From Alphaproteobacteria bacterium (GTDB taxonomy: Bacteria > Pseudomonadota > Alphaproteobacteria > JAAXGF01): DNA of 64,000 bases. Of the stretch, positions 50,561-64,000 are shown one piece after another (positions within the stretch are counted from its first letter, which is position 1; each line of letters begins with the position of its first letter). The stretch lies in assembly GCA_963555825.3 (NCBI GenBank), contig CAUVXB020000001.1, forward strand, positions 1,600,001 through 1,664,000, given 5' to 3'. The notes under the pieces were generated by a model. The model did not search any database. It worked only from the letters and a program-made list of their open reading frames with translations, and had not been told where the DNA came from. The position numbers and the translations under genes were made by a program.

Positions 50561-51834
50561 GCGTCGCCTCGCAGACGCGCCCGGGCACGCTCGCCGGGGG
50601 CGTAGTTGAACGAGCTATCGACGCCCTCGAGCCCGGGAATGACGACGCGTACCACGGGGATGCCGAACTCTTCCTTGGTCAGGTCGACCACGATGACCTC
50701 GCCGATGCCGACCGAGGCCAAGCGGGCGCACGCCCAATCCACGTCGTCCTCGAAGCGATCGCCGTTCCACGTGTCGACGTCTGCGAAGCTCCGGCATGGC
50801 TCGCCGCGTTCGATGCACGACAGCCACGAGGCATGCGTCTCGGCATCGAGGAATTCGTCATATTCGGCGCGCCACAGGTCGTCGCGCGCGCCGGAAATGA
50901 AGGTCAGGCGGCTCTGGGCGGCCTCGGTGAGCGCCCTGGCGAGCGCCACGTCGCGCGACGCGTGGCAGCCCATGCCGCTCGCCGGTCGACTGCCGTTCGC
51001 CGGCGGCGCGGCCCGTTGGACAATACGGCACAGGAACGCGGGAATGCCGACGTCGGATGTCACGTCCCAGACGCCGACCTCGACGTCGGCTGCCGCGTAT
51101 TTGTCCAGCAGGTCGCGGCAGCCGGGATCGTCGACCGTGCCGAGGTCGATTCGCGTCTGCCCTTGGCCGTCTTCATCGAGCAGGTGCCAGAGCGTGACCG
51201 CGTCCCGTTCGACGACCTCGCAGATCGCGTGGCTGATTGCCTCGAGCCGGTGATTGCCCGAAGCCAGCCCGTTCGAGCTCGCGACGAAGCAGCCGTGACC
51301 GGACGGCAGCGGCAGCGTGTAGTTCAGGTGGACCAACTCGTAGGGCACCCAGACCTCGCGGTCGCCGAGCAGGTCCCGACCGCCGACCCAAAGCAGCTGC
51401 TTGTATGGCGTGAAGCGGCTGTCGACGAGCCTGGAAAGCCGATCGACATCGACCAGGCTATGGCTGTAGCGGAGGTCCTCGACGCTGCCGAGCTTGAGCG
51501 GCAAGGCGATGCGCTCGGCGTGATAGGACTCGATCGATTCCATCAGGCCCGACGCCTTGGCCGCGTCGACGTCGAGCCCCTTGCCCTGGGAAACGGAAAT
51601 CGACCGCGAGTTGGGCCGGCTCACCATGACGACGGGAATGCCGACGGTGTCGAGCCCGGTCACGTTGGCGATGCGGGTGATGCCCATGACGGGCATGAAA
51701 TGGCGGACCCGCTCGACGGTCTCGCGCGGCGGCACGAGGCGATGGGTGCCCGCCGTGAAGCCCTTGCGCGCGCCGGCGGCAACGCCTTCGACCGGCTCGT
51801 GTCCGACACGCGCTATGCTCACCGAGAGCGCCAT
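50557..51834 (-). CDS. YcaO-family ATP-dependent peptide-modifying enzyme (TfuA-associated)
   Basis: GITRIANVTGLD..GIPV, SQGKG, MESIE, SSNGLASG, EVVERDA, TEAAQSR, VVIPGLE; no C-terminal PxP. Confidence 0.95.
   Translation of the reverse strand: MALSVSIARVGHEPVEGVAAGARKGFTAGTHRLVPPRETVERVRHFMPVMGITRIANVTGLDTVGIPVVMVSRPNSRSISVSQGKGLDVDAAKASGLMESIESYHAERIALPLKLGSVEDLRYSHSLVDVDRLSRLVDSRFTPYKQLLWVGGRDLLGDREVWVPYELVHLNYTLPLPSGHGCFVASSNGLASGNHRLEAISHAICEVVERDAVTLWHLLDEDGQGQTRIDLGTVDDPGCRDLLDKYAAADVEVGVWDVTSDVGIPAFLCRIVQRAAPPANGSRPASGMGCHASRDVALARALTEAAQSRLTFISGARDDLWRAEYDEFLDAETHASWLSCIERGEPCRSFADVDTWNGDRFEDDVDWACARLASVGIGEVIVVDLTKEEFGIPVVRVVIPGLEGVDSSFNYAPGERARARLRGDA
50997..51045. repeat. 49-bp exact direct repeat, copy inside ycaO
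   Basis: Identical to 52600-52648. Confidence 0.95.
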
Positions 51835-52043
51835 CGACTCCCCTGTCCTTGGCCCTGGCCCGATAGGCGCGCCGGACCCTTGGATGAACGCACTCCCTCT
51901 ATGCGGCCGCGCGAGACGCGCCGCACGCACCAATCACTCGTACTGGCGATGCACTCCGAATCGGCGGCCCGACAAGCGGCCAGACCCGACTACGCCCGAC
52001 CGACCGCGTCGTTTTTGGCGCCGATCATCGAGCGGGCTCCGAG

Positions 52044-52493
52044 CTAATCCGCCGCGTCAACGCGGATGCGCGCCGCCGCGTGGTCGCCGGGGTCGATCAC
52101 GTAGCAAGCTGCACCATGGTCGCCGGGGTCGATCACGTAGCGAGACGCACCATGATCGTCCGGCTCGATGCGCATGTGCGCCGCCAGATTGTCGCCCGGC
52201 TCGATCACGTAGCGAGCAGCACCATGGTCGCCCGGCTCGATCACGTAGCGAGCAGCACCATGGTCGCCCGGCTCGATCACGTAGCGAGCAGCACCATGAT
52301 CGTCCGGCTCGGTCATAGTGCGAGCTGCCATATGATCTGAATGACTAGCCATAACGCGATCTGATGGCTCGGTACCGCCCGCAGAAACCTCATCTAGTAC
52401 CGTTGGAACCGGTTGGGACGCACGAGCCGAAACATCGTAGAGGACGCCGTCCGCTCCGCGGACCAACGTGCTCTGTCGATCGTCGTGTGGCAT
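52044..52493 (-). CDS. Putative multicore RiPP precursor (52-aa leader + 8 x 12-aa cores)
   Basis: RBS GGAGG; tandem DHGAARYVIEPG-like units from residue 53 to 148; directly upstream of ycaO-tfuA. Confidence 0.8.
   Translation of the reverse strand: MPHDDRQSTLVRGADGVLYDVSARASQPVPTVLDEVSAGGTEPSDRVMASHSDHMAARTMTEPDDHGAARYVIEPGDHGAARYVIEPGDHGAARYVIEPGDNLAAHMRIEPDDHGASRYVIDPGDHGAACYVIDPGDHAAARIRVDAAD
52050..52337 (-). repeat. Eight tandem 36-bp coding repeats
   Basis: Unit ~CCCGGCTCGATCACGTAGCGAGCAGCACCATGGTCG on + strand, no spacers. Confidence 0.92.
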
Positions 52494-52599: not shown

Positions 52600-52648
52600 T
52601 CGCCGGCGGCGCGGCCCGTTGGACAATACGGCACAGGAACGCGGGAAT
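52600..52648. repeat. 49-bp exact direct repeat, intergenic copy
   Basis: TCGCCGGCGGCGCGGCCCGTTGGACAATACGGCACAGGAACGCGGGAAT, identical to 50997-51045. Confidence 0.95.
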
Positions 52649-52850: not shown

Positions 52851-53852
52851 TTACTGAGCAGTTTCTCCTGTTGTGGGTGTCACAGGTGGGTTGATCCAGA
52901 CGGCTTGGGGAAGGGGATCCGGTTGTGGTATCCCTCGAACGAAGCGTTCGGGATGACGGGTCCAGGCGGCTTGAAGGGTCCGCCCGCGCTGCTCCAGCAC
53001 GCTCTGGGTTCGATTGTGATGCACGTCGTCCGGGGTGAGCATGGCGATCCCGCCATGGCGATGTTCGGTGTTGTACCAAGGGAAGAACGTTCGGCAGAAG
53101 GCGATCGCGGCGGTGATGTCGTGGAAGCGGCCAGGGAAGCCGGGGTGGTACTTCAGGGTCTTGAACTGCGCCTCGGAGAAGGGGTTGTCGTCGGACACCT
53201 GAGGGCGGCTCAGTGAACGGGTCACGCCGAGGTCGGCGAGCAGTTGTGCGGTGCACTTGCTCGTCATCGGCGCGCCGCGGTCGGAGTGCAGGGTGAGCAC
53301 CTGGGGCTGGACGCCCTGTTTATGGCAGGTCTCTTCGATGAGACGACCGGCCAGCGCCGAGTTCTCCCGGTCTGCGACCATCCAGCCGACCGCGTAGCGG
53401 CTGAAGATGTCGAGCACGACGTAGAGGTAGAAGTACGTCCACTTGGTCGGCCCCAACAGCTTGGTGATGTCCCAGGACCAGGTCTGGTTCGGCGCCGTGG
53501 CCACCAGCTCGGGCTTGGTGTACTGGGGATGCTCGCGCTGATTGCGCCGCTCTCGGACCGGCTGATCGGCGGCCAGGATCCGATACATCGTCCGCTCCGA
53601 GCACAGGTAATGGCCTTCGTCGAGCAGCGTCGCCACGACCTCCGCCGGCGCACGGTCGACGAAGCGCGGGCCGGCGAGCACATCGAGGATCTGCTCGCGC
53701 TCGGCTTCACACAGCGCCCGGGCGGGCGTTGGACGGGGCTGCTGGTGCCCGGGAGTTGACCTCTGACGACGGTAGAAGCTCGCCCGTGACACGCCCAGTG
53801 CTTGGCAGGCCGGCGCCACGCCGACCTGCGCCGCAAGCGGTTGGACCGCCAT
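52851..53852 (-). CDS. IS3-family transposase OrfB
   Basis: WSWDITKL, LDIFSRY, HSDRG, DNPFSEAQFKTLKY; TGATG coupling to orfA. Confidence 0.9.
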   Translation of the reverse strand: MAVQPLAAQVGVAPACQALGVSRASFYRRQRSTPGHQQPRPTPARALCEAEREQILDVLAGPRFVDRAPAEVVATLLDEGHYLCSERTMYRILAADQPVRERRNQREHPQYTKPELVATAPNQTWSWDITKLLGPTKWTYFYLYVVLDIFSRYAVGWMVADRENSALAGRLIEETCHKQGVQPQVLTLHSDRGAPMTSKCTAQLLADLGVTRSLSRPQVSDDNPFSEAQFKTLKYHPGFPGRFHDITAAIAFCRTFFPWYNTEHRHGGIAMLTPDDVHHNRTQSVLEQRGRTLQAAWTRHPERFVRGIPQPDPLPQAVWINPPVTPTTGETAQ

Positions 53853-54334
53853 CAAGAGCGCGTTCCGTGTTCGAGGTTCAATCCCAGCAGCCCGGCAACT
53901 TTTCCCTGCACGTCCAGGATCGTGTGCGCGGTGTGCAACTCGTGCTCCAGGCGAGCCACTTGCGCCTCGAGCGCGCGCACCTTCGCATCCAGCGGGTTGC
54001 GTTCGGCCGGTTTCGCGCCGCGCTTCTTCGCGGCCAACTCCCGCAGCGAGCCCTTGCGCCGCGCCTTGCGCCAAGCCGTCAGATGCGAGCTGTACAACCC
54101 CTCGCGGCGAAGCAGGCGGCCCACCTCGCCGGGCTGTGTGCAGCGATCCGCCTCCTCCAGAATCCGCAGCCGATACTCTGCGGTGAACTGGCGCCGCTTC
54201 GGCTTGGCCACAACCTCCGGGTCCGGGGTCGGTCTGGCGCGGCCGGCCCTGGGGGCCTCGTCGCTACGCTCCTCGACCCCAAGGGCCGGAACGGAAACCT
54301 CATTCAATGTCATCGAGTCTCTCTCTGCGGTCAT
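53852..54334 (-). CDS. IS3-family transposase OrfA
   Basis: RRQFTAEYRLRIL, LLRREGLYSSHLTAWR. Confidence 0.88.
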   Translation of the reverse strand: MTAERDSMTLNEVSVPALGVEERSDEAPRAGRARPTPDPEVVAKPKRRQFTAEYRLRILEEADRCTQPGEVGRLLRREGLYSSHLTAWRKARRKGSLRELAAKKRGAKPAERNPLDAKVRALEAQVARLEHELHTAHTILDVQGKVAGLLGLNLEHGTRS

Positions 54335-54568
54335 CGGTTTTCACCTCCACCGCCCTACAGAAATTCCGAAGGTTGCTGGTGTCTCAGTGATGTTGGCAGA
54401 GAGGGCCGTGCTGATCGGGGCCGCGTCCGAAGCGGTCATCGACGAAGAACTGGAAAGGGCGGCAAGAACGCCGGCACGCGCAGCGCACGGCGTGCATTAG
54501 CGTCACGGCTAAGCGGCTCGGACAATTAGAGACGACGAAGCGCTCACAGAGAGCTATTGTCAAAAGTT

Positions 54569-56369
54569 GACGGGGCGGTAAAAAGTCGATTCCTCATGAG
54601 AGTCGGCTGGATTATAATTGTGCATGTTTACTTTACGCGACCGACGGACTGGGGAATTGTTTGATCGCTGGTCCGATTTCGGGGACAAACGTCGGCGCCT
54701 GATGGAGCAATCCTGGGCCGGGGTTTTTCGGAACCATCTGCTTGTCGAACTTCCGGTTGACGATCTTTGCCGTCACCTTGATGAACGCATGGGCCGACCA
54801 TCGAAGGATCTACACGTTGTCATCGGGGTCTTGCTTTTGCAGCAGCTGCACGATCTGAGCGATGCAGAGACCGTCGAGGCCCTGGCCTTCAATATGGCGT
54901 GGCACTATGCCTTGGACGTGCGCAGCGAAGCGGACAGCTATTTCTGTGAGAAAACCCTGCGCAACTATCGCCGTCTGTTTATCGAACAAGGTCTCGATGA
55001 ATTGCTGTTCCGGTGTTTGACGGATCGGCTGGTGCAGGGGTTCTCTGTCGATACCAGCCACCAACGCATGGATTCGACGGCCCTTCGTTCGGCAATGCGG
55101 GCGCTGACACGACTTGGTATCGTTGTTGAGAGCATCTCGAAGTTTGCCCGTGAGCTTGAGCGATATCATCCCGGTCTGCACGAGCAGATCAGCAAGGAGG
55201 TGATCCGCCGCTATGTCGATCGCGAGGGTAATGGCGCGTTCGCGAATACGGCGCCGAGTGTTTCAAAACGGCGCCTCGGCGAAGCGGGTCAGTATCTCCT
55301 AGCCCTGGTGCTGCAATTCCGTGACACGGCGGCGGCAAAGCTTTCCAGTTTTGCGATCCTGGAGAGGGTTCTGCGCGATCAGTTCGAGATCGTTGATGAT
55401 GAGTATGGCGATCGTGACGCAACGCGCGCCGCGATTCGAGATCCAAAGGATGTGCCGTGCGATACCGTCGGCAATCCGGCCGACCCGGACGCGAGCTACA
55501 ACGCGCACAAGGGTCAAGGATACATGGCGCAGATCGTCGAAACCTATTGTGAAGATGTCAGTAACGAGGCGGTTGCCGCGACACCGGACCTCATCACCCA
55601 CGTGGAGGTCCACAAGATGACGGTGCATGACGGCCATCGCTTAGCCGATGCGCTGGATGATCTGAGCGAGCGCGCGCTGACGCCGGCGGTGATGCTGGGT
55701 GATTCACATTACGGTTCCAGTGACAACATGGCTCTGACGCGCGAACAGAACATCAATCTCGTGGCGCCCGCACGACCGCCGAAAGGCGCCGTCTCGGGAC
55801 GGTTGACGTTGGAGGATTTCACTCTCAACGAAGAAGGCTTGGTCTTGCGCTGTCCCAATAACGTCGAACCGGTTTCAGCCTCGCTCGCCAAAGCCAAGCT
55901 GCAGGCCCGTTTCGACCTCTCCATCTGCCAAAAATGTCCCGATATACTGCGATGTCCCGTGCAGGCGGCCAAGCGTGACGGCCAATTTTCCCGCTTTCAA
56001 TATACCCCGGCCAGGGCTGCCAACCAAAAGCGCCGGCTTTATGAACAAAGCGATGCCTTCCGCAACGTCTACAGATGGCGGGCCGGCATAGAAGCGACCA
56101 TGTCGCGATTAAAGTACCAGATGAACCTGGCTCACCTACGCATTCGCGGCATGCCGGCCATGCGCTACGTGGTCAATCTGCGTGCCCTCGGCCTCAATAT
56201 CCGACGCTGCGCGGCAATCGCACCATAAAAAACGAAGCCAAGGAGAAGCCAAGGGTAGGTAATATCAGGTTTTATCCACCAGCAACGCGGAGACAGGCAA
56301 ATATTCTTCACCGAACCGCAAAGACCTGTACAAGCACGCCATCGGCCAACAACTTTTTATCGCCCCGTC
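54569..56369 (+). mobile_element. IS1182/IS5-like element, copy 1 (1801 bp)
   Basis: Ends GACGGGGCGGTAAAAAGT / ACTTTTTATCGCCCCGTC; both flanks are IS256 IR sequence. Confidence 0.85.
54618..56228 (+). CDS. IS1182/IS5-like transposase
   Basis: GRPS..LLLQQLHDLSD, MDST, DPDASY, GDSHYG, RAGIEATMSRLK. Confidence 0.88.
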   Translation: MCMFTLRDRRTGELFDRWSDFGDKRRRLMEQSWAGVFRNHLLVELPVDDLCRHLDERMGRPSKDLHVVIGVLLLQQLHDLSDAETVEALAFNMAWHYALDVRSEADSYFCEKTLRNYRRLFIEQGLDELLFRCLTDRLVQGFSVDTSHQRMDSTALRSAMRALTRLGIVVESISKFARELERYHPGLHEQISKEVIRRYVDREGNGAFANTAPSVSKRRLGEAGQYLLALVLQFRDTAAAKLSSFAILERVLRDQFEIVDDEYGDRDATRAAIRDPKDVPCDTVGNPADPDASYNAHKGQGYMAQIVETYCEDVSNEAVAATPDLITHVEVHKMTVHDGHRLADALDDLSERALTPAVMLGDSHYGSSDNMALTREQNINLVAPARPPKGAVSGRLTLEDFTLNEEGLVLRCPNNVEPVSASLAKAKLQARFDLSICQKCPDILRCPVQAAKRDGQFSRFQYTPARAANQKRRLYEQSDAFRNVYRWRAGIEATMSRLKYQMNLAHLRIRGMPAMRYVVNLRALGLNIRRCAAIAP

Positions 56370-56457
56370 GAATCTTGTGTACGGCGTTGAAATGAAGGCG
56401 GCGTATCCTGGTGATTGTTGATGTCACCACTTGAGCTAAGCCAAGGAAGGATACGCC

Positions 56458-57702
56458 ATGAAAGAGAATACCGTTGTTGCTTTTCAAAACCCATCTGATT
56501 TTCAGAAAGATCCGTTGACGGAAGTCCTACAAGCTGGAGCTCGCGAGTTGTTGGCCCAAGCCGTTGAGGCCGAGGTCTCCGTGTTTTTGGGTAGCCATGC
56601 GGCGCTTGTTGACGCCGCCGGCCGCCGCCGGGTTGTCCGCAATGGATATCTGCCGGAACGCTTCATCCAGACCGGGATCGGCCCGGTGAGCGTGCGCCAA
56701 CCCCGTGTGCGGGACCGGGGGGACGGCGCCATCCGCTTCACGTCGGCGATCCTGCCGCGCTATCTGCGCCGCGCCAAGAGCCTGGAAGACCTTTTGCCAT
56801 GGCTGTATCTGAAGGGCATTTCCACCGGCGACTTCGGGGAAGCCTTGGCGGCGCTCCTGGGGAGCTCCGCGCCGGGGCTTTCGGCCTCCACGATCACCCG
56901 GCTGAAAGAGGTCTGGGGGGTTGAGGCGGAGCGCTGGCAACGGCGCGACCTCACGGCCAAGCGCTACGTCTATTTCTGGGTGGACGGCATCTATTTCAGC
57001 GCCCGCATGGAGGAAGAGAAGCAGTGCATCCTGGTGATCGTCGGGGCCACGGACAAGGGACAGAAGGAACTGATCGCCATCGCCGACGGCTATCGCGAAA
57101 GTGAGCAGTCCTGGCTCGAAGTTCTGCTCGATCTCAAGCGGCGCGGCCTTGAAATGGGTCCGCAACTGGCGCTCGGCGACGGCGCGCTCGGCTTCTGGAA
57201 GGCGCTCCGCCAAGTCTACCCAGGCGCCCGCGAGCAACGCTGCTGGGTTCACAAGACGGGCAACGTCTTGAACAAGCTGCCCAAGGGTCTGCAAAAGAAA
57301 GCCAAGGGGCGCCTGCAAGACATCTGGATGGCCGAAACCAGGAAGGATGCCGAGAGCGCCTTCGACTTCTTCCTGGAAGCCTACGGGCCGAAGTACGACA
57401 AGGCCGCGGCCTGCCTGGCCAAGGACCGCGACGTCCTGCTGACGTTCTACGACTTCCCCGCCGAGCACTGGAAGCATGTACGCACGACCAACCCCATCGA
57501 GAGCACGTTCGCCACGGTTCGTCTGCGCACCTACCGGACCAAGGGCTGCCTGTCGCGCAAGACGGCGATGGCCATGGTCTTCAAACTATGCCAGTGCGCT
57601 CAGAGAAAATGGAGAAAACTCGATGGATCGAACCATCTCGCCGAGATCATTCGCGGCGTCAAATTCGTAGATGGAGAACGCCAGGATCGCGCCGCCGCAT
57701 GA
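56458..57702 (+). CDS. IS256 family transposase
   Basis: RNGYLPER, WVDGIY, GDGALGFW, QRCWVHK, RTTNPIES. Confidence 0.95.
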   Translation: MKENTVVAFQNPSDFQKDPLTEVLQAGARELLAQAVEAEVSVFLGSHAALVDAAGRRRVVRNGYLPERFIQTGIGPVSVRQPRVRDRGDGAIRFTSAILPRYLRRAKSLEDLLPWLYLKGISTGDFGEALAALLGSSAPGLSASTITRLKEVWGVEAERWQRRDLTAKRYVYFWVDGIYFSARMEEEKQCILVIVGATDKGQKELIAIADGYRESEQSWLEVLLDLKRRGLEMGPQLALGDGALGFWKALRQVYPGAREQRCWVHKTGNVLNKLPKGLQKKAKGRLQDIWMAETRKDAESAFDFFLEAYGPKYDKAAACLAKDRDVLLTFYDFPAEHWKHVRTTNPIESTFATVRLRTYRTKGCLSRKTAMAMVFKLCQCAQRKWRKLDGSNHLAEIIRGVKFVDGERQDRAAA

Positions 57703-57722
57703 TCAGCCCATACACAACTTTT

Positions 57723-59523
57723 GACGGGGCGGTAAAAAGTCGATTCCTCATGAGAGTCGGCTGGATTATAATTGTGCATGTTTACTTTACGCGACCGACG
57801 GACTGGGGAATTGTTTGATCGCTGGTCCGATTTCGGGGACAAACGTCGGCGCCTGATGGAGCAATCCTGGGCCGGGGTTTTTCGGAACCATCTGCTTGTC
57901 GAACTTCCGGTTGACGATCTTTGCCGTCACCTTGATGAACGCATGGGCCGACCATCGAAGGATCTACACGTTGTCATCGGGGTCTTGCTTTTGCAGCAGC
58001 TGCACGATCTGAGCGATGCAGAGACCGTCGAGGCCCTGGCCTTCAATATGGCGTGGCACTATGCCTTGGACGTGCGCAGCGAAGCGGACAGCTATTTCTG
58101 TGAGAAAACCCTGCGCAACTATCGCCGTCTGTTTATCGAACAAGGTCTCGATGAATTGCTGTTCCGGTGTTTGACGGATCGGCTGGTGCAGGGGTTCTCT
58201 GTCGATACCAGCCACCAACGCATGGATTCGACGGCCCTTCGTTCGGCAATGCGGGCGCTGACACGACTTGGTATCGTTGTTGAGAGCATCTCGAAGTTTG
58301 CCCGTGAGCTTGAGCGATATCATCCCGGTCTGCACGAGCAGATCAGCAAGGAGGTGATCCGCCGCTATGTCGATCGCGAGGGTAATGGCGCGTTCGCGAA
58401 TACGGCGCCGAGTGTTTCAAAACGGCGCCTCGGCGAAGCGGGTCAGTATCTCCTAGCCCTGGTGCTGCAATTCCGTGACACGGCGGCGGCAAAGCTTTTC
58501 AGTTTTGCGATCCTGGAGAGGGTTCTGCGCGATCAGTTCGAGATCGTTGATGATGAGTATGGCGATCGTGACGCAACGCGCGCCGCGATTCGAGATCCAA
58601 AGGATGTGCCGTGCGATACCGTCGGCAATCCGGCCGACCCGGACGCGAGCTACAACGCGCACAAGGGTCAAGGATACATGGCGCAGATCGTCGAAACCTA
58701 TTGTGAAGATGTCAGTAACGAGGCGGTTGCCGCGACACCGGACCTCATCACCCACGTGGAGGTCCACAAGATGACGGTGCATGACGGCCATCGCTTAGCC
58801 GATGCGCTGGATGATCTGAGCGAGCGCGCGCTGACGCCGGCGGTGATGCTGGGTGATTCACATTACGGTTCCAGTGACAACATGGCTCTGACGCGCGAAC
58901 AGAACATCAATCTCGTGGCGCCCGCACGACCGCCGAAAGGCGCCGTCTCGGGACGGTTGACGTTGGAGGATTTCACTCTCAACGAAGAAGGCTTGGTCTT
59001 GCGCTGTCCCAATAACGTCGAACCGGTTTCAGCCTCGCTCGCCAAAGCCAAGCTGCAGGCCCGTTTCGACCTCTCCATCTGCCAAAAATGTCCCGATATA
59101 CTGCGATGTCCCGTGCAGGCGGCCAAGCGTGACGGCCAATTTTCCCGCTTTCAATATACCCCGGCCAGGGCTGCCAACCAAAAGCGCCGGCTTTATGAAC
59201 AAAGCGATGCCTTCCGCAACGTCTACAGATGGCGGGCCGGCATAGAAGCGACCATGTCGCGATTAAAGTACCAGATGAACCTGGCTCACCTACGCATTCG
59301 CGGCATGCCGGCCATGCGCTACGTGGTCAATCTGCGTGCCCTCGGCCTCAATATCCGACGCTGCGCGGCAATCGCACCATAAAAAACGAAGCCAAGGAGA
59401 AGCCAAGGGTAGGTAATATCAGGTTTTATCCACCAGCAACGCGGAGACAGGCAAATATTCTTCACCGAACCGCAAAGACCTGTACAAGCACGCCATCGGC
59501 CAACAACTTTTTACCGCCCCGTC
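57723..59523 (+). mobile_element. IS1182/IS5-like element, copy 2 (1801 bp)
   Basis: Near-identical to copy 1; 7-bp TSD AACTTTT (57716-57722, 59524-59530). Confidence 0.88.
57772..59382 (+). CDS. IS1182/IS5-like transposase
   Basis: Same as 54618-56228 except one S>F change. Confidence 0.88.
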   Translation: MCMFTLRDRRTGELFDRWSDFGDKRRRLMEQSWAGVFRNHLLVELPVDDLCRHLDERMGRPSKDLHVVIGVLLLQQLHDLSDAETVEALAFNMAWHYALDVRSEADSYFCEKTLRNYRRLFIEQGLDELLFRCLTDRLVQGFSVDTSHQRMDSTALRSAMRALTRLGIVVESISKFARELERYHPGLHEQISKEVIRRYVDREGNGAFANTAPSVSKRRLGEAGQYLLALVLQFRDTAAAKLFSFAILERVLRDQFEIVDDEYGDRDATRAAIRDPKDVPCDTVGNPADPDASYNAHKGQGYMAQIVETYCEDVSNEAVAATPDLITHVEVHKMTVHDGHRLADALDDLSERALTPAVMLGDSHYGSSDNMALTREQNINLVAPARPPKGAVSGRLTLEDFTLNEEGLVLRCPNNVEPVSASLAKAKLQARFDLSICQKCPDILRCPVQAAKRDGQFSRFQYTPARAANQKRRLYEQSDAFRNVYRWRAGIEATMSRLKYQMNLAHLRIRGMPAMRYVVNLRALGLNIRRCAAIAP

Positions 59524-59628
59524 AACTTTTGACAATAGCTCCGCCATACCAAGGAGACGCGACTAAGAACCATAGAGATCCTGTACGCTTTTCGCCGGGT
59601 CGGAAGCGAGCCGCGGGCGATGGAATTA

Positions 59629-59908
59629 TACCAAGGGTCAGTGATAAAGGCCCCCAGAGATCGCGTCCGCATTTCGCCGGTGAGGCAAGACAGCCGCGGG
59701 CGATGCAGCGCATCGGCTAGGCGTCCTGACGACCTCCGGCGAAAAGCGGCCGCGACCCGAAGGGCGGCTTGCCGAGGCTCTCGGACGTCGTTGCACCGGT
59801 CTTGCGATGCGCCTCCTATTGCCATACGTGGGCATCGCCGCGACGGGCGCGCCTAGCCGAGAACCACGGCAAGCCGTCTCTAGGGGTCTTTATCACTGAT
59901 CCTTGGTA
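59629..59908. mobile_element. 280-bp MITE
   Basis: ~32-bp IRs TACCAAGGGTCAGTGATAAAGGCCCCCAGAGA / TCTCTAGGGGTCTTTATCACTGATCCTTGGTA; TTA direct repeat on both sides. Confidence 0.78.
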
Positions 59909-60433
59909 TTAGGCAGAGCGTTCGAATTCCGTCGACGACGGGGAACCAAATAGGACAAGGGGTCGCGCCGCCCGGGCGCGATCTCCCTTGTTGCATTTGG
60001 GCGTCAGCCGGCCTCAGCCGCCGCGCAGGGCGATAGCGCGGCCGGCCTGGGGCAGCCGGGGTAGCGTGGCGTGCCTATCGGCAACCGCGCGGACCCGGGC
60101 CATGGCGTCGGCCGGAAAGGCGGCCGCGCGCCGGCGGGCGAGGTCGACGTTGAGGTAGAGGACCTGATTGGTCGCCGCCAGATAGCCCTCGGCGGCGTGG
60201 CGCATGAAATGCATGACATCGAGCGCCTTGTCGGTTGCGCCCAGAACCCGGCTCTCGAAGCGCAGCGGGTCATCCTCGCGCAATTCGCGCTCGAACACGA
60301 TGTGCGTCTCGTTGGCGAACAGGGCGTGGTTGGTGCGCTTGCGATAGGCCTCGCTGACGTCGAGCTGTGTGAACAAGTGGCGTGCGGCGTCCTCGAAGGC
60401 GAGCAGGTAGTAGCCGAGGTTCATGTGGCCTGA

Positions 60434-61608
60434 TACCAGTGAGCGCCTGAATTGACTCTCGGGATATTCATTGATGGCGGATGATGGCGGATTGTGATTC
60501 TATGGTCTCCCACCAGATGTGGGGGATGTCATGGGATCAGCACTCAAGATACGGGATGATTTGACGCCTTTGGAGCTTCGGCGCTGGGCTCGCGTGGAAT
60601 CGTACGGTCGAGCGGCGGCGCGGGCCTATGGGATCGCGAATGCTTTGGAGGAGATGCCCCGGGCTGATGCCGCGCGGCTTGCGGGGATGGATCGCCAAAC
60701 GCTTCGCGACGCGGTTGTTCGTTACAATGCAAAGGGATTGGAGGGGCTTCACGACCGTCCAAAGGGCTACTCGCCGCGGCGGCTGACGGCAGACGAGGAA
60801 GCGGCGCTGGCGGCGGTCATCATCGCCGGGCCGGAGCCTGAGCGCGACGGGGTTTGCGCCTGGACCCGGGCCGATCTGTGCCGCTGGCTGGAGGAGCGCT
60901 TCGCCAAGACCTACCACCCCTCGAGCATGACCCGGGTTCTACGGCGGATGGGATTTTCCCGCCAGAAGGCGCGCCCGAGCCACCCGCGAAGGGACGCCGA
61001 AGCGCAGGAGCGCTTCAAAAAAGGGGGCTTCGCGACATCCTGAAGGCGACCGCCGCGGCGCATCCCGACAAGCGCCTACAGCTGTGGTTTCAGGATGAAG
61101 CGCGCGTCGGCAACAAGGGCCGGGTGTGTCACCGGTGGTGGCGCAGGGGCGAGCGTGCCCCCGGGACGCGTCAAATCGGCTACCAGTGGGCCTACATCTT
61201 CTCCGCCGTGCGCCCGGACACCGGCGACGACGTCACCCTGGTGATGCCGAGCGTCAACGCCAAGGTCATGGACCTGTTTCTCGCACACTTCGCCGATACC
61301 CTGGACCAGGATGCGCACGCCGTCATGATGTGCGACGGCGCCGGTTGGCACGACGAGCGCGCCCTCACCGTCCCCGACAACGTCACCTTGGCGCTGTTGC
61401 CGCCTTACAGTCCCGAACTCAACCCCGTCGAGCGGGTTTGGCTCTACCTACGCGAACGCTTCCTATCGCTCCGCGTCCTCGACGACACCGAGGCCATCAT
61501 CGACGCCTGTTGCCAAGCATGGATCGACCTCATCGCAGAACCGGATCGTATGCGAACCCTCTGCGCCTATCCATGGATCATGAAGGTGATTTCATAGGCT
61601 CACTGGTA
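60434..61608 (+). mobile_element. IS630 family element
   Basis: IRs TACCAGTGAGC / GCTCACTGGTA; TGA duplicated at 60431-60433 and 61609-61611. Confidence 0.9.
60531..61597 (+). CDS. IS630 transposase, two ORFs probably joined by a programmed -1 frameshift
   Basis: OrfA HTH ending FKKGG at AAAAAAGGGGG (61017-61027); OrfB WFQDEAR, CDGAGWH, LPPYSPELNPVE. Confidence 0.88.
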
Positions 61609-61675
61609 TGAGTAGTCGATCCACTCGGACTGGACGGTCGCCTCGTAGGGCGTGATGACTGACGGGTTCGACATC

Positions 61676-62991
61676 GAGCTATAACCGAATCTTGTGTACG
61701 GCGTTGAAATGAAGGCGGCGTATCCTGGTGATTGTTGATGTCACCACTTGAGCTAAGCCAAGGAAGGATACGCCATGAAAGAGAATACCGTTGTTGCTTT
61801 TCAAAACCCATCTGATTTTCAGAAAGATCCGTTGACGGAAGTCCTACAAGCTGGAGCTCGCGAGTTGTTGGCCCAAGCCGTTGAGGCCGAGGTCTCCGTG
61901 TTTTTGGGTAGCCATGCGGCGCTTGTTGACGCCGCCGGCCGCCGCCGGGTTGTCCGCAATGGATATCTGCCGGAACGCTTCATCCAGACCGGGATCGGCC
62001 CGGTGAGCGTGCGCCAACCCCGTGTGCGGGACCGGGGGGACGGCGCCATCCGCTTCACGTCGGCGATCCTGCCGCGCTATCTGCGCCGCGCCAAGAGCCT
62101 GGAAGACCTTTTGCCATGGCTGTATCTGAAGGGCATTTCCACCGGCGACTTCGGGGAAGCCTTGGCGGCGCTCCTGGGGAGCTCCGCGCCGGGGCTTTCG
62201 GCCTCCACGATCACCCGGCTGAAAGAGGTCTGGGGGGTTGAGGCGGAGCGCTGGCAACGGCGCGACCTCACGGCCAAGCGCTACGTCTATTTCTGGGTGG
62301 ACGGCATCTATTTCAGCGCCCGCATGGAGGAAGAGAAGCAGTGCATCCTGGTGATCGTCGGGGCCACGGACAAGGGACAGAAGGAACTGATCGCCATCGC
62401 CGACGGCTATCGCGAAAGTGAGCAGTCCTGGCTCGAAGTTCTGCTCGATCTCAAGCGGCGCGGCCTTGAAATGGGTCCGCAACTGGCGCTCGGCGACGGC
62501 GCGCTCGGCTTCTGGAAGGCGCTCCGCCAAGTCTACCCAGGCGCCCGCGAGCAACGCTGCTGGGTTCACAAGACGGGCAACGTCTTGAACAAGCTGCCCA
62601 AGGGTCTGCAAAAGAAAGCCAAGGGGCGCCTGCAAGACATCTGGATGGCCGAAACCAGGAAGGATGCCGAGAGCGCCTTCGACTTCTTCCTGGAAGCCTA
62701 CGGGCCGAAGTACGACAAGGCCGCGGCCTGCCTGGCCAAGGACCGCGACGTCCTGCTGACGTTCTACGACTTCCCCGCCGAGCACTGGAAGCATGTACGC
62801 ACGACCAACCCCATCGAGAGCACGTTCGCCACGGTTCGTCTGCGCACCTACCGGACCAAGGGCTGCCTGTCGCGCAAGACGGCGATGGCCATGGTCTTCA
62901 AACTATGCCAGTGCGCTCAGAGAAAATGGAGAAAACTCGATGGATCGAACCATCTCGCCGAGATCATTCGCGGCGTCAAATTCGTAGATGG
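61676..62991 (+). mobile_element. IS256 family element, copy 2, interrupted near its 3' end
   Basis: Intact IRL GAGCTATAACCGAATCTTGTGTA; matches copy 1 until 62991. Confidence 0.9.
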
Positions 62992-63031
62992 TGAGTCGGA
63001 CCCGATTTCCTTGGACACAGAATTGGCTTAA
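61775..63031 (+). CDS. IS256 transposase with last residues replaced by IS3 sequence
   Basis: Identical to 56458-57702 up to KFVDG. Confidence 0.88.
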   Translation: MKENTVVAFQNPSDFQKDPLTEVLQAGARELLAQAVEAEVSVFLGSHAALVDAAGRRRVVRNGYLPERFIQTGIGPVSVRQPRVRDRGDGAIRFTSAILPRYLRRAKSLEDLLPWLYLKGISTGDFGEALAALLGSSAPGLSASTITRLKEVWGVEAERWQRRDLTAKRYVYFWVDGIYFSARMEEEKQCILVIVGATDKGQKELIAIADGYRESEQSWLEVLLDLKRRGLEMGPQLALGDGALGFWKALRQVYPGAREQRCWVHKTGNVLNKLPKGLQKKAKGRLQDIWMAETRKDAESAFDFFLEAYGPKYDKAAACLAKDRDVLLTFYDFPAEHWKHVRTTNPIESTFATVRLRTYRTKGCLSRKTAMAMVFKLCQCAQRKWRKLDGSNHLAEIIRGVKFVDGESDPISLDTELA

Positions 63032-64000
63032 TCGAAGTGTCCAAGGAGGACCGGAACATGACCGACAATTTTGAGAACAAAGTTGCTGTTGATGGGCCTG
63101 TGGTAAACGAGGGCGAGCTTGGCTCGTCCACGTTTTCCCCGGGCCAGGTTTCGCCGGCAGGCCCGCTGGGACTTGGCCAGCGGTGGACGGTGACGCGCAA
63201 GCGTGAGGTTGCCCTGCGGCTTTTGCGTGGCGAGCCGGTGGAACTTTTGTCGCGGCAGTTGGGCGTGGAGATTTTCCGGCTCGAGCAGTGGCGTGAGAAG
63301 GCGATCGCCGGGATCGATGCCTCGCTCAAGGAACGCAAGGGCGATCCGGTGAAGGCGGAACTGGACATCGCCATGAAGCGGATCGGGGAGTTGATCATGC
63401 AGGTGGAACTGCTGGAGGCCAAGACGGAGACGTCCGGCCCTTTGGGGCGGCGGAGGTCGCGGCGATGAGTGCCGCCACCTCTCCCGGCACGGGTTTGGCC
63501 TACGGCCTCCAGCGGGTCTGTGCGGCCTGGGGTTTTGCCCGTTCCTCGTTCTACGCCATGAAATCCCGGCAGCAGGCCACCGCTGAGCGCCCACCAGCAA
63601 AGCGCCGGGGACCGAAGCCCTCGATCTCGGACGAGGCTCTGCTGGTGGCCATCGAGGCCGACCTGGAGGCATCCCCCTGGGAGGGCGAGGGACACCGCAA
63701 GGTCTGGGCTCGGCTTCGGGTCTGTCGTGGCATCCGTGTTTCCCGCAAGCGGGGGCTCCGGGTGATGCGCGAGAACAACCTGCTCTCGCCCCATCGCTGC
63801 CGCCGCCGTGGCGGAAATCCCCATGTCGGTGAGATCATCACCCATGCCCCCAACCTCATGTGGGGCACGGACGGCGTTCGGGTGTTCACGGTGGACGACG
63901 GCTGGGGCTGGATATTCACCGCCATCGAGCATTGGAACGCCGAGTGCGTCGGCTGGCATGTGTGCAAGCGAGGCGACCGCTTCGCCGCCCTTCAGCCGAT
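62992..64000 (+). mobile_element. IS3-family element, runs off window
   Basis: TG start at divergence from IS256; orfA 63058-63468 (WTVTRKREVALRLLRGE); orfB from 63465 (GHRKVW, PNLMWGTD). Confidence 0.82.

Follow-up and report, generated by a model that had tools for sequence, protein, structure and literature searches.

The stretch of DNA analysed here (the window) comprises 64,000 nucleotides (nt) of the alphaproteobacterial assembly GCA_963555825.3 (contig CAUVXB020000001.1, positions 1,600,001 to 1,664,000 of the forward strand). Towards its right side, two copies of one insertion sequence are nested with a second, unrelated insertion sequence in a single block. We refer to the first, which is 1801 bp long, as E, and to the two IS256-type elements that serve as its targets in this genome as IS256-A and IS256-B. 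The block and its empty-target reference are laid out as follows, in window positions.

54551-54568, + strand: nt 1-18 of the right inverted repeat (IRR) of IS256-A without an IS256 body, the left flank of E copy 1
54569-56369, + strand: E copy 1 (1801 bp), terminal inverted repeats (IRs) at 54569-54586 and 56352-56369
54624-56228, + strand: transposase gene of E copy 1, 534 amino acids, with DUF772, DDE_Tnp_1 and DDE_Tnp_1_6 domains
56370-57722, + strand: IS256-A body, nt 12-1364 of 1375 bp (match q11-1367, 100% identity)
56458-57702, + strand: intact IS256-family transposase gene, 414 amino acids (PF00872, 199 bits; NF033543, 320 bits)
57723-59523, + strand: E copy 2 (1801 bp), a simple insertion in the IS256-A IRR with AACTTTT duplicated
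57778-59382, + strand: transposase gene of E copy 2
59524-59541, + strand: second AACTTTT plus GACAATAGCTC, which is IS256-A IRR nt 18-1, the outer end of the IS256 copy
61676-62991, + strand: second IS256-A copy with an unoccupied left IR (IRL), the empty-target reference (match q1-1316, 100%)

The junctions of both E copies can be read against intact IRs. The intact IRL at 61676 is GAGCTATAACCGAATCTTGTGTACGG, and the intact IRR was read on uninterrupted IS256-A copies elsewhere in the genome. E copy 2 lies between AACTTTT at 57716-57722 and AACTTTT at 59524-59530, the latter followed by GACAATAGCTC at 59531-59541, and this heptamer is a 7-bp duplication of IS256 IRR nt 12-18. E copy 1 is preceded at 54551-54568 by GAGCTATTGTCAAAAGTT, which is IRR nt 1-18 (the 11 outer nt plus AAAAGTT) and is identical to the same nucleotides of intact IS256-A copies elsewhere in the genome; its right flank, from 56370, is GAATCTTGTGTACGG, the IRL from nt 12 on. 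Both IRs of the IS256-A body between the two copies are thus split by E: its first nucleotides are GAATCTT (IRL nt 12-18) and its last, up to 57722, are AACTTTT, the complement of IRR nt 18-12. The two E copies are in direct orientation and differ at two positions, E nt 777 and 1792, the latter being a C>T variant in the right IR of copy 1 (window 56360). An earlier note on this DNA had described these IRs, the flanks of both copies and the common offset of the junctions, and all are present in the sequence.

E has one open reading frame (ORF) bounded by perfect 18-bp terminal IRs, GACGGGGCGGTAAAAAGT, and its right end is non-coding for 141 nt. Translation most likely starts at ATG 54624 (534 amino acids) and not at TTG 54618, where an ORF finder places it (536 amino acids); the residue numbers used here count from the 536-amino-acid ORF. 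The transposase scores above the cut-offs for PF05598 (47.4 bits), PF13751 (50.7 bits) and PF01609 (35 bits), and it has the IS1182 domain set of an N-terminal DUF772 and a C-terminal DDE_Tnp_1_6-type domain. IS1182-family elements have a single ORF, terminal IRs and a length of about 1.3-1.95 kilobases (the ISfinder size range), and E falls within this layout. The IS1182 model NF033551 is by far its top NCBIfam match (the next, ISNCY_1, reaches 62 bits), and the alignment covers residues 42-533 with no apparent domain beyond those of the model. A Y-2-R-3-E-6-K signature is typical of DDE transposases of the IS4/IS5/IS1182 group. Across 17 homologues of 56-88% identity, Y485-R488-E492-K499 is invariant, as are S153, D362 and cysteines 412, 437, 440 and 446, and D152 is conserved in at least 90%. 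A profile of the 17 homologues gave no match among PDB chains at an E-value of 0.01 or better. The label "IS1182-like", which the earlier note had given the element, holds as far as the nearest family is concerned, but the relationship is distant: the NF033551 score of 173.9 bits falls short of the curated cut-off, 270, and plasmid transposases annotated as IS1182 family, ISMno10 or ISMgi3 are 26-28% identical to that of E over about 90% of the length. On these comparisons we place E as an IS1182-like DDE element, apparently autonomous, on a deep and separate branch near the IS1182 family.

Insertion sites in the genome of the window

The host elements are conventional. IS256-A (1375 bp) encodes the transposase whose NF033543 score stands well over the cut-off of 150 bits, and IS256-B (1378 bp) encodes one 69.6% identical to it. 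Unoccupied IS256 copies have a 9-bp target duplication in 17 cases, 8 bp in one and none in three. By transposase scores, size (the family range being about 1.3-1.4 kb), imperfect terminal IRs and these 8-9-bp duplications, the host element is a standard member of the IS256 family. Fully intact copies left in the genome number 15 for IS256-A and five for IS256-B.

In the window's own genome (6.04 Mb in two contigs, C1 and C2 in the coordinates given here), in which BLAST finds E in 52 matches, 25 of them full length, every left and right end of E was read with its flanks. Each of the 71 perfect E termini has a GAGCTAT-type site beside it, always at one and the same offset. Sixty-nine of the termini are in IS256-type IRs, where the offset is identical, nt 12-18 are duplicated and both orientations occur; the remaining two (C1:863122 and C1:866356) flank one intergenic look-alike site, GAACTATATCC GATCATC, between glutamine-synthetase and amidohydrolase genes. 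Sorted by flank, 40 of the 71 termini are "outer", with GAGCTAT (2 mismatches or fewer) exactly 18-12 nt outside E, though one of these is actually the far side of the look-alike site; 29 are on the "inner" side of an IS256 IR, and two adjoin slightly degenerate IS256 IRs. The outer side is met by the left end of E 17 times and by its right end 20 times, so that orientation is nearly balanced. A junction pattern of this kind is far beyond chance. The earlier note had proposed, from the window, that E targets nt 12-18 of IS256 IRs, and had named a genome-wide tabulation of flanks as the test; that tabulation bears the proposal out, with copies placed not at unrelated sites but, apart from the one look-alike, in these IRs.

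The available targets are used selectively. Counted on the inner side, E occupies 15 of 40 IS256-A IRLs, 10 of 39 IS256-A IRRs, 8 of 13 IS256-B IRLs and 0 of 16 IS256-B IRRs, or 33 of 108 IS256-A/B ends overall. The genome holds 115 perfect GAGCTAT-N4-RANNNTY sites, 113 of them in IS256-type IRs, and 38 are occupied. Within IS256-A there are 15 RANNNTY heptamers, and the only ones used are those at nt 12 and nt 1358. The target is one type of IR and not the IS256 family as a whole, because a second IS256-family element, present in 26 copies in the same genome with IRs beginning GGAGATGTCCC, has no E insertion.

Nesting also occurs in reverse. At C2:2831924-2835108 an E copy is interrupted by an intact IS256-A (C2:2832172-2833546), and E nt 1554-1562 form the 9-bp duplication, TGAACCTGG. 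A DNA-binding module common to the E and IS256 transposases was considered as a candidate and rejected, as BLASTP of E against the IS256-A transposase found no similarity (best E-value 6.3).

Relatives of E and a genome without IS256

Relatives of E were collected at 54 loci in genomes and 80 in metagenomes, which gave 151 non-redundant ends with Amylibacter excluded. Seventy-two of these ends are outer, 27 inner and 52 neither, so that 99 of 151 match, compared with 14 of 1288 when the flanks are shifted by 3-10 nt. The proportion of matching (outer plus inner) ends by identity to E is as follows.

Identity of 95% or more: 21 of 36 ends
Identity of 80-94%: 22 of 26 ends
Identity of 65-79%: 33 of 51 ends
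Identity of 50-64%: 22 of 33 ends
Identity below 50%: 1 of 5 ends

Altogether 76 distinct outer 18-mers are targeted. At the pooled positions that played no part in selecting the sites, C is found at nt 11 in 65%, a purine (R) at nt 12 in 95%, A at nt 13 in 91%, T at nt 17 in 95% and G at nt 19 in 75%. A cultured case is provided by Microvirga sp. VF16, whose megaplasmid bears a copy of 71% identity flanked on each side by GAGCTATGACG and a further 7 bp; it is the only close relative of E in the plasmid collection. Relatives in other genomes and metagenomes thus behave like E, and the preference is conserved across the clade.

Among 54 transposases placed in a FastTree phylogeny, 34 belong to elements labelled as targeting IS256 IRs, and 32 of these group in one clade of 42 with support of 0.93; two further targeting elements and a four-member subclade with other targets have no firm placement. 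This subclade falls among relatives of 42-46% identity (loci L175, L176, L180, L182 and L183) with similar termini, GACGGnGCGGAAAAAAGT or GACGGCCCGGCAAAAAGT, that lie within GGGTGCC...GGCACCC palindromes, a sister lineage that seems to target a different repeat. These flanks agree with the palindrome targeting by IS1182-family members described in PMC5678879.

Some further observations on the relatives may be added. Proteins 97-99% identical to that of E are encoded at loci L031-L083 in metagenome-assembled genomes (MAGs) titled Amylibacter, Paracoccaceae, Rhodospirillales and Alphaproteobacteria, and a Thermodesulfobacteriota MAG has an N-terminal fragment of 98% identity. The occurrence of near-identical E across MAGs labelled as different orders suggests recent horizontal spread. 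The left flank of the window is present in runs labelled sponge metagenome. Head-to-tail tandem pairs of E or a relative, exactly 7 bp apart, occur at five loci in identity classes of 55-99% (L034:1644-5252, L067:2164-5770, L082, L118 and L148), with none seen in the window's own genome; these pairs could be second insertions at an occupied site or dimer-type transposition intermediates.

An important question is whether the proteins of IS256 have a part in target choice, and the Amylibacter MAG (G001) serves as a natural control. It has 0 matches to PF00872 (IS256/Mutator), compared with 5-41 in the four other searched genomes, and it carries 31 full E copies of 99% identity. Twenty-one targets could be read, 13 from copies with perfect 7-bp duplications and 8 rebuilt by pairing heptamers. 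Scored against GAGCTAT placed exactly -11 from the duplication, these targets agree on the better strand at a mean of 4.38 of the 7 positions, whereas local RANNNTY sites given the same treatment average 2.40 of 7 (z 8.9; 0 of 100000 resamplings), and the score at every other offset is 1.1-2.4. The weaker (mirror) strand scores 2.14 against a background of 1.14. The duplicated heptamer is RANNNTY at 17 of the 21 sites, against a background frequency of 1.8%. The MAG contains one perfect GAGCTAT-N4-RANNNTY site.

Since the E copies in this IS256-free genome keep both the motif and the offset, IS256 genes are dispensable for target choice, and these site comparisons make direct reading of the DNA, and not recognition by way of IS256 proteins, the most likely basis of targeting. 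The earlier note had pictured E as a position-specific parasite living on another insertion sequence. The position-specific targeting stands, but E is not bound to IS256 as such and uses look-alike sites where IS256 is absent. The same data bear on the possibility that the E transposase is recruited by IR-bound IS256 transposase or by an IS256 synaptic complex. Such recruitment would suit the window's own genome, in which every site but one falls in an IS256 IR, the expected binding region of IS256 transposase. It does not, however, account for the Amylibacter copies, for the intergenic look-alike insertion in the own genome or for relatives of 73% identity in a Rhizobiaceae MAG, which are also found at look-alike sites, and we regard it as very unlikely.

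A proposed sequence-reading transposase and its alternatives

We consider it very probable that the DDE transposase of the E clade reads a bipartite DNA motif common to the IRs of one IS256 subgroup, and that this reading leads to insertion at nt 12-18. The transposase would select its target by sequence, recognizing GAGCTAT, then a spacer of 4 bp, then a 7-bp core, RANNNTY, usually followed by G. The preference for the core would be symmetric (C|RANNNTY|G), and a 7-bp staggered cut would lead to its duplication. The preferred string corresponds to nt 1-19 of the terminal IRs of one IS256-family subgroup, which would explain why nearly all insertions fall at nt 12-18 where such elements are present. 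The middle of the GAGCTAT half-site and that of the staggered cut are about 11 bp apart, close to one turn of the helix, insertion occurs in both orientations, and the mirror half-site is enriched where a perfect site is lacking. For these reasons the data suggest a transpososome with two-fold symmetry, each protomer of which may be able to read one GAGCTAT half-site, with one good half-site sufficing. An IR that is split after nt 18 would be separated from its outer 18 bp, and from the general function of IRs that IS256 end should be disabled. E would then be a parasite of IS256 that gains a safe haven by landing in DNA dispensable to the host.

Several points weigh against this reading. Fifty-two of the 151 ends of relatives are in neither class, and some of these are plainly at non-matching sites; others are tandem E-E junctions, ends with 1-2-nt offsets or inner sides outside the pattern used. 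In the pooled motif, the rule that admitted sites with 2 mismatches or fewer introduces a bias at positions 1-7, and the bias-free test of the motif is Amylibacter with its matched control only. The symmetry of the dimer is drawn from 21 sites in one genome. The IRR of IS256-B (GAGCTATGTCC GAAAGTT GGTGACGG, the base after GAAAGTT being G; example copy at C1:462506-463883) matches the consensus and is nevertheless never occupied; each of its parts is present in used sites elsewhere. A rare haplotype and a configuration are common to the copies at C2:438014 and C2:665003, and likewise to those at C1:1686161 and C2:2760690, so that IS256+E composites that moved or were duplicated as units could account for part of the E copies. 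Finally, all of the support comes from comparing sequences, with no transposition event observed.

These last observations raise an alternative in which there is no real targeting, and a few chance insertions were amplified by the movement of IS256 composites or by segmental duplication. Besides the two copy pairs, the uneven use of the two IS256-B ends (8 of 13 against 0 of 16) is in keeping with amplification, as are 12 occupied IS256 copies in which an intact 9-bp IS256 duplication surrounds the whole composite. The 9-bp duplications, however, are equally expected from E entering a resident IS256, so that they fit either history; several rows scored as having no duplication arise only because E was taken to be an unbroken 1801 bp. 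The own genome has at least six configurations (three IR types in two orientations), and haplotypes of E cross them. The consensus, 777C and 1496G haplotypes each occur in three or four insertion configurations, 777C in IS256-A IRL (outward and inward), IS256-A IRR and IS256-B IRL copies and 1496G in IS256-B IRL (both orientations) and IS256-A IRR, and single configurations contain several haplotypes. The crossing of haplotypes and configurations implies many independent insertions, or else heavy gene conversion. Moreover, 76 distinct IR-like 18-mers are used across genomes, and the offset and motif recur in a genome without an IS256-family transposase. Amplification of composites is unable to yield the overall pattern, and as its sole cause we judge it to have as little chance of being right as recruitment by IS256 proteins.

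A second alternative is survivorship, in which E inserts almost at random with a loose preference for RANNNTY and the copies that survive are those in harmless DNA. The genome is crowded with insertion sequences, and insertions there are presumably neutral. The positional data contradict this explanation, which we rate slightly lower again: just two of the 15 RANNNTY heptamers in IS256-A are ever used, other abundant insertion sequences, including the 26-copy IS256-family element, are untouched, and the GAGCTAT signal in Amylibacter is sharp at one offset.

A further alternative comes from known elements with a like outcome. IS4321 and IS5075, of the IS1111 group within the IS110 family, target the 38-bp IRs of the Tn21 family in one orientation and without a target duplication. 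E resembles them in that it inserts at one fixed position in the IR of an unrelated element and splits that IR, as one parasite upon another. PMC11187229 describes the enzyme of IS4321/IS5075-type elements as a DEDD recombinase guided by a seekRNA. An RNA guide of the IS110/IS1111 kind in E could be thought to reside in its 141-nt non-coding right end. E differs, however, in having a DDE transposase of the IS4/IS5/IS1182 type, a 7-bp duplication and insertion in both orientations (17 vs 20), and GAGYTAT or its complement is found nowhere within 16 of 18 complete elements, so that a conserved complementary guide segment is lacking. RNA-guided targeting is accordingly among the least probable of the explanations considered.

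The closest mechanistic analogue of direct reading by E is IS231A, a member of the IS4 family that prefers the terminal IR of Tn4430 and has a short, symmetric target consensus. Both elements have DDE transposases, insert in the IR of another transposon and respond to sequence features around a staggered cut. E differs from IS231A in its further 7-bp target element, which is set 4 bp out from the duplication, and in a preference that is kept down to about 50% identity; to our knowledge, the preference of IS231A has not been reported as conserved across a wide clade. Other elements also choose repeated or mobile-element-borne sites that make safe landing places. IS1397, ISKpn1 and ISPpu9/10 target repetitive extragenic palindromic (REP) sequences and bacterial interspersed mosaic elements (BIMEs), and Tn5053/Tn402 are "res hunters" that need the resolvase of the target. 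These belong to other families and have other targets. With the canonical IS1182 family (IS1272, IS1182, ISPse1, ISMno10, ISMgi3), E shares the domain set and selective targets, and it is set apart by about 27% identity, a score under the cut-off, a 7-bp duplication and an IR target instead of a hairpin. According to PMC5678879, IS1272 inserts in palindromic inverted-repeat structures without duplication, and a review cited there has some IS1182-family members targeting palindromes. The duplication of ISPse1 is given as 4 bp in PMC3281130.

No account of an IS1182-like element inserting in IS256 IRs was found in the full-text literature, with ISfinder/TnPedia and subscription journals outside the scope of that search. 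The conserved targeting of IS256 IRs by E thus appears to be new, and the idea was anticipated by other elements that target IRs. The IR-targeting elements that are well understood employ RNA-guided DEDD recombinases. The E clade, spanning about 50-100% identity, has an ordinary DDE transposase with a long, bipartite and position-exact preference, and the evidence favours a transposase that reads the DNA itself. The clade may therefore serve as a model for how a DDE transpososome comes close to site-specific insertion when neither a guide RNA nor an accessory protein directs it to the target. It is also a case in which a mobile element exploits a second one, and probably disables it, in sponge-associated bacteria rich in insertion sequences. 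There is a practical side as well: in annotation, a split IS256 IR, a block of E, IS256 and E, or an E copy between IS256 termini can be mistaken for a composite transposon or for a new element.

A bolder and rather doubtful extension is that the E clade is a hyperparasite that acts as a brake on the expansion of IS256 in symbionts ridden with insertion sequences, and that E is in addition mobilized in trans by IS256. If so, cutting the IR after nt 18 would be the brake, and the 33 of 108 occupied IS256-A/B ends would be disarmed in this genome. The arrangement "IS256 nt 1-18 | E | IS256 nt 18-1" would keep inverted IS256 termini and might offer E a second route of mobility, and the block in the window, bounded by 36-bp repeats, would be the same arrangement on a larger scale. 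A DDE enzyme that acts as protein alone, with a bipartite preference of about 14 specified bp, would also be a possible starting point for guide-free, site-specific insertion.

Rearranged copies and neighbouring elements

The earlier note held that the whole block has perfect 36-bp outer inverted repeats, and these are confirmed at 54551-54586 and 59506-59541. The repeat reaches 36 bp because IRR nt 1-18 and the 18-bp terminus of E adjoin on each side. The block has no IS256-type target duplication around it (GCTCACAGA vs CGCCATACC), and hence nothing indicates that it moved as a unit. An arrangement of IS256 outer end, E and IS256 outer end is also present at C2:767366-770330, in Microvirga and at several metagenome loci, and is the expected product of recombination between two E copies in one IS256.

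E copy 1, whose flanks come from two different IRs, is the sole clear hybrid among the 27 full or near-full copies in the own genome. The copy at C2:687704 looks like a hybrid and is a simple insertion, as a 9-bp IS256 duplication surrounds the composite. Two IRL insertions oriented like copy 1 share its haplotype (777C+1792T). The earlier note took the hybrid flanks to imply recombination between two insertions. Recombination between E copies does fit, in the form of a deletion between two direct copies, but intramolecular transposition into a second IR with deletion would fit equally. Movements of insertion sequences that are linked to deletions and lack duplications are documented in bioRxiv 10.1101/2024.06.02.596822. 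Over half of the 31 full E copies in Amylibacter have unmatched flanks, often in reciprocal pairs, which argues that such rearrangements are common for E. Both the hybrid flanks of copy 1 and the 36-bp repeats are by-products of rearrangement.

Misassembly of the block, which the earlier note gave as grounds for refutation, is unlikely and as improbable as an RNA guide: five kilobases of nested, nearly identical repeats are difficult to assemble and none of the short-read contigs spans them, but the assembly has two contigs, the junction types are seen again at dozens of uniquely flanked loci and in unrelated assemblies, and the E-IS256-E architecture is present at further loci. Contigs from two runs also join the unique left flank, IRR nt 1-18 and the first 8-9 nt of E; this reach into E is shorter than the 31-nt bridging criterion and the two runs are perhaps the assembly's own source, so these contigs add little weight.

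The surroundings of the block are rich in other repeats and mobile elements. Adjoining its right side, a stretch of 282 bp at 59628-59909 lies between 33-nt inverted repeats (91% complementary) and looks like a small non-autonomous element. An IS630/Tc1-like element with imperfect 36-nt terminal repeats follows at 60430-61612; its helix-turn-helix (HTH) ORF (60519-61043) and DDE_3 ORF (60854-61597) are in different frames, and it apparently interrupts a minus-strand gene. Two IS3-like insertion sequences with rve or HTH_Tnp_1-type ORFs occupy 52851-54390 and 62992-64000. The right one, with ORFs from 63037, truncates the second IS256-A copy at about nt 1316, and its terminus (TGAGTCGGACCCGATTTCC...) also interrupts several E copies elsewhere in the genome. 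Further to the left, a tandem array with a 36-nt period and at least seven units, 61-81% alike, lies at 52032-52369, and a perfect 49-nt direct repeat occurs at 50997-51045 and 52600-52648, 1603 nt apart.

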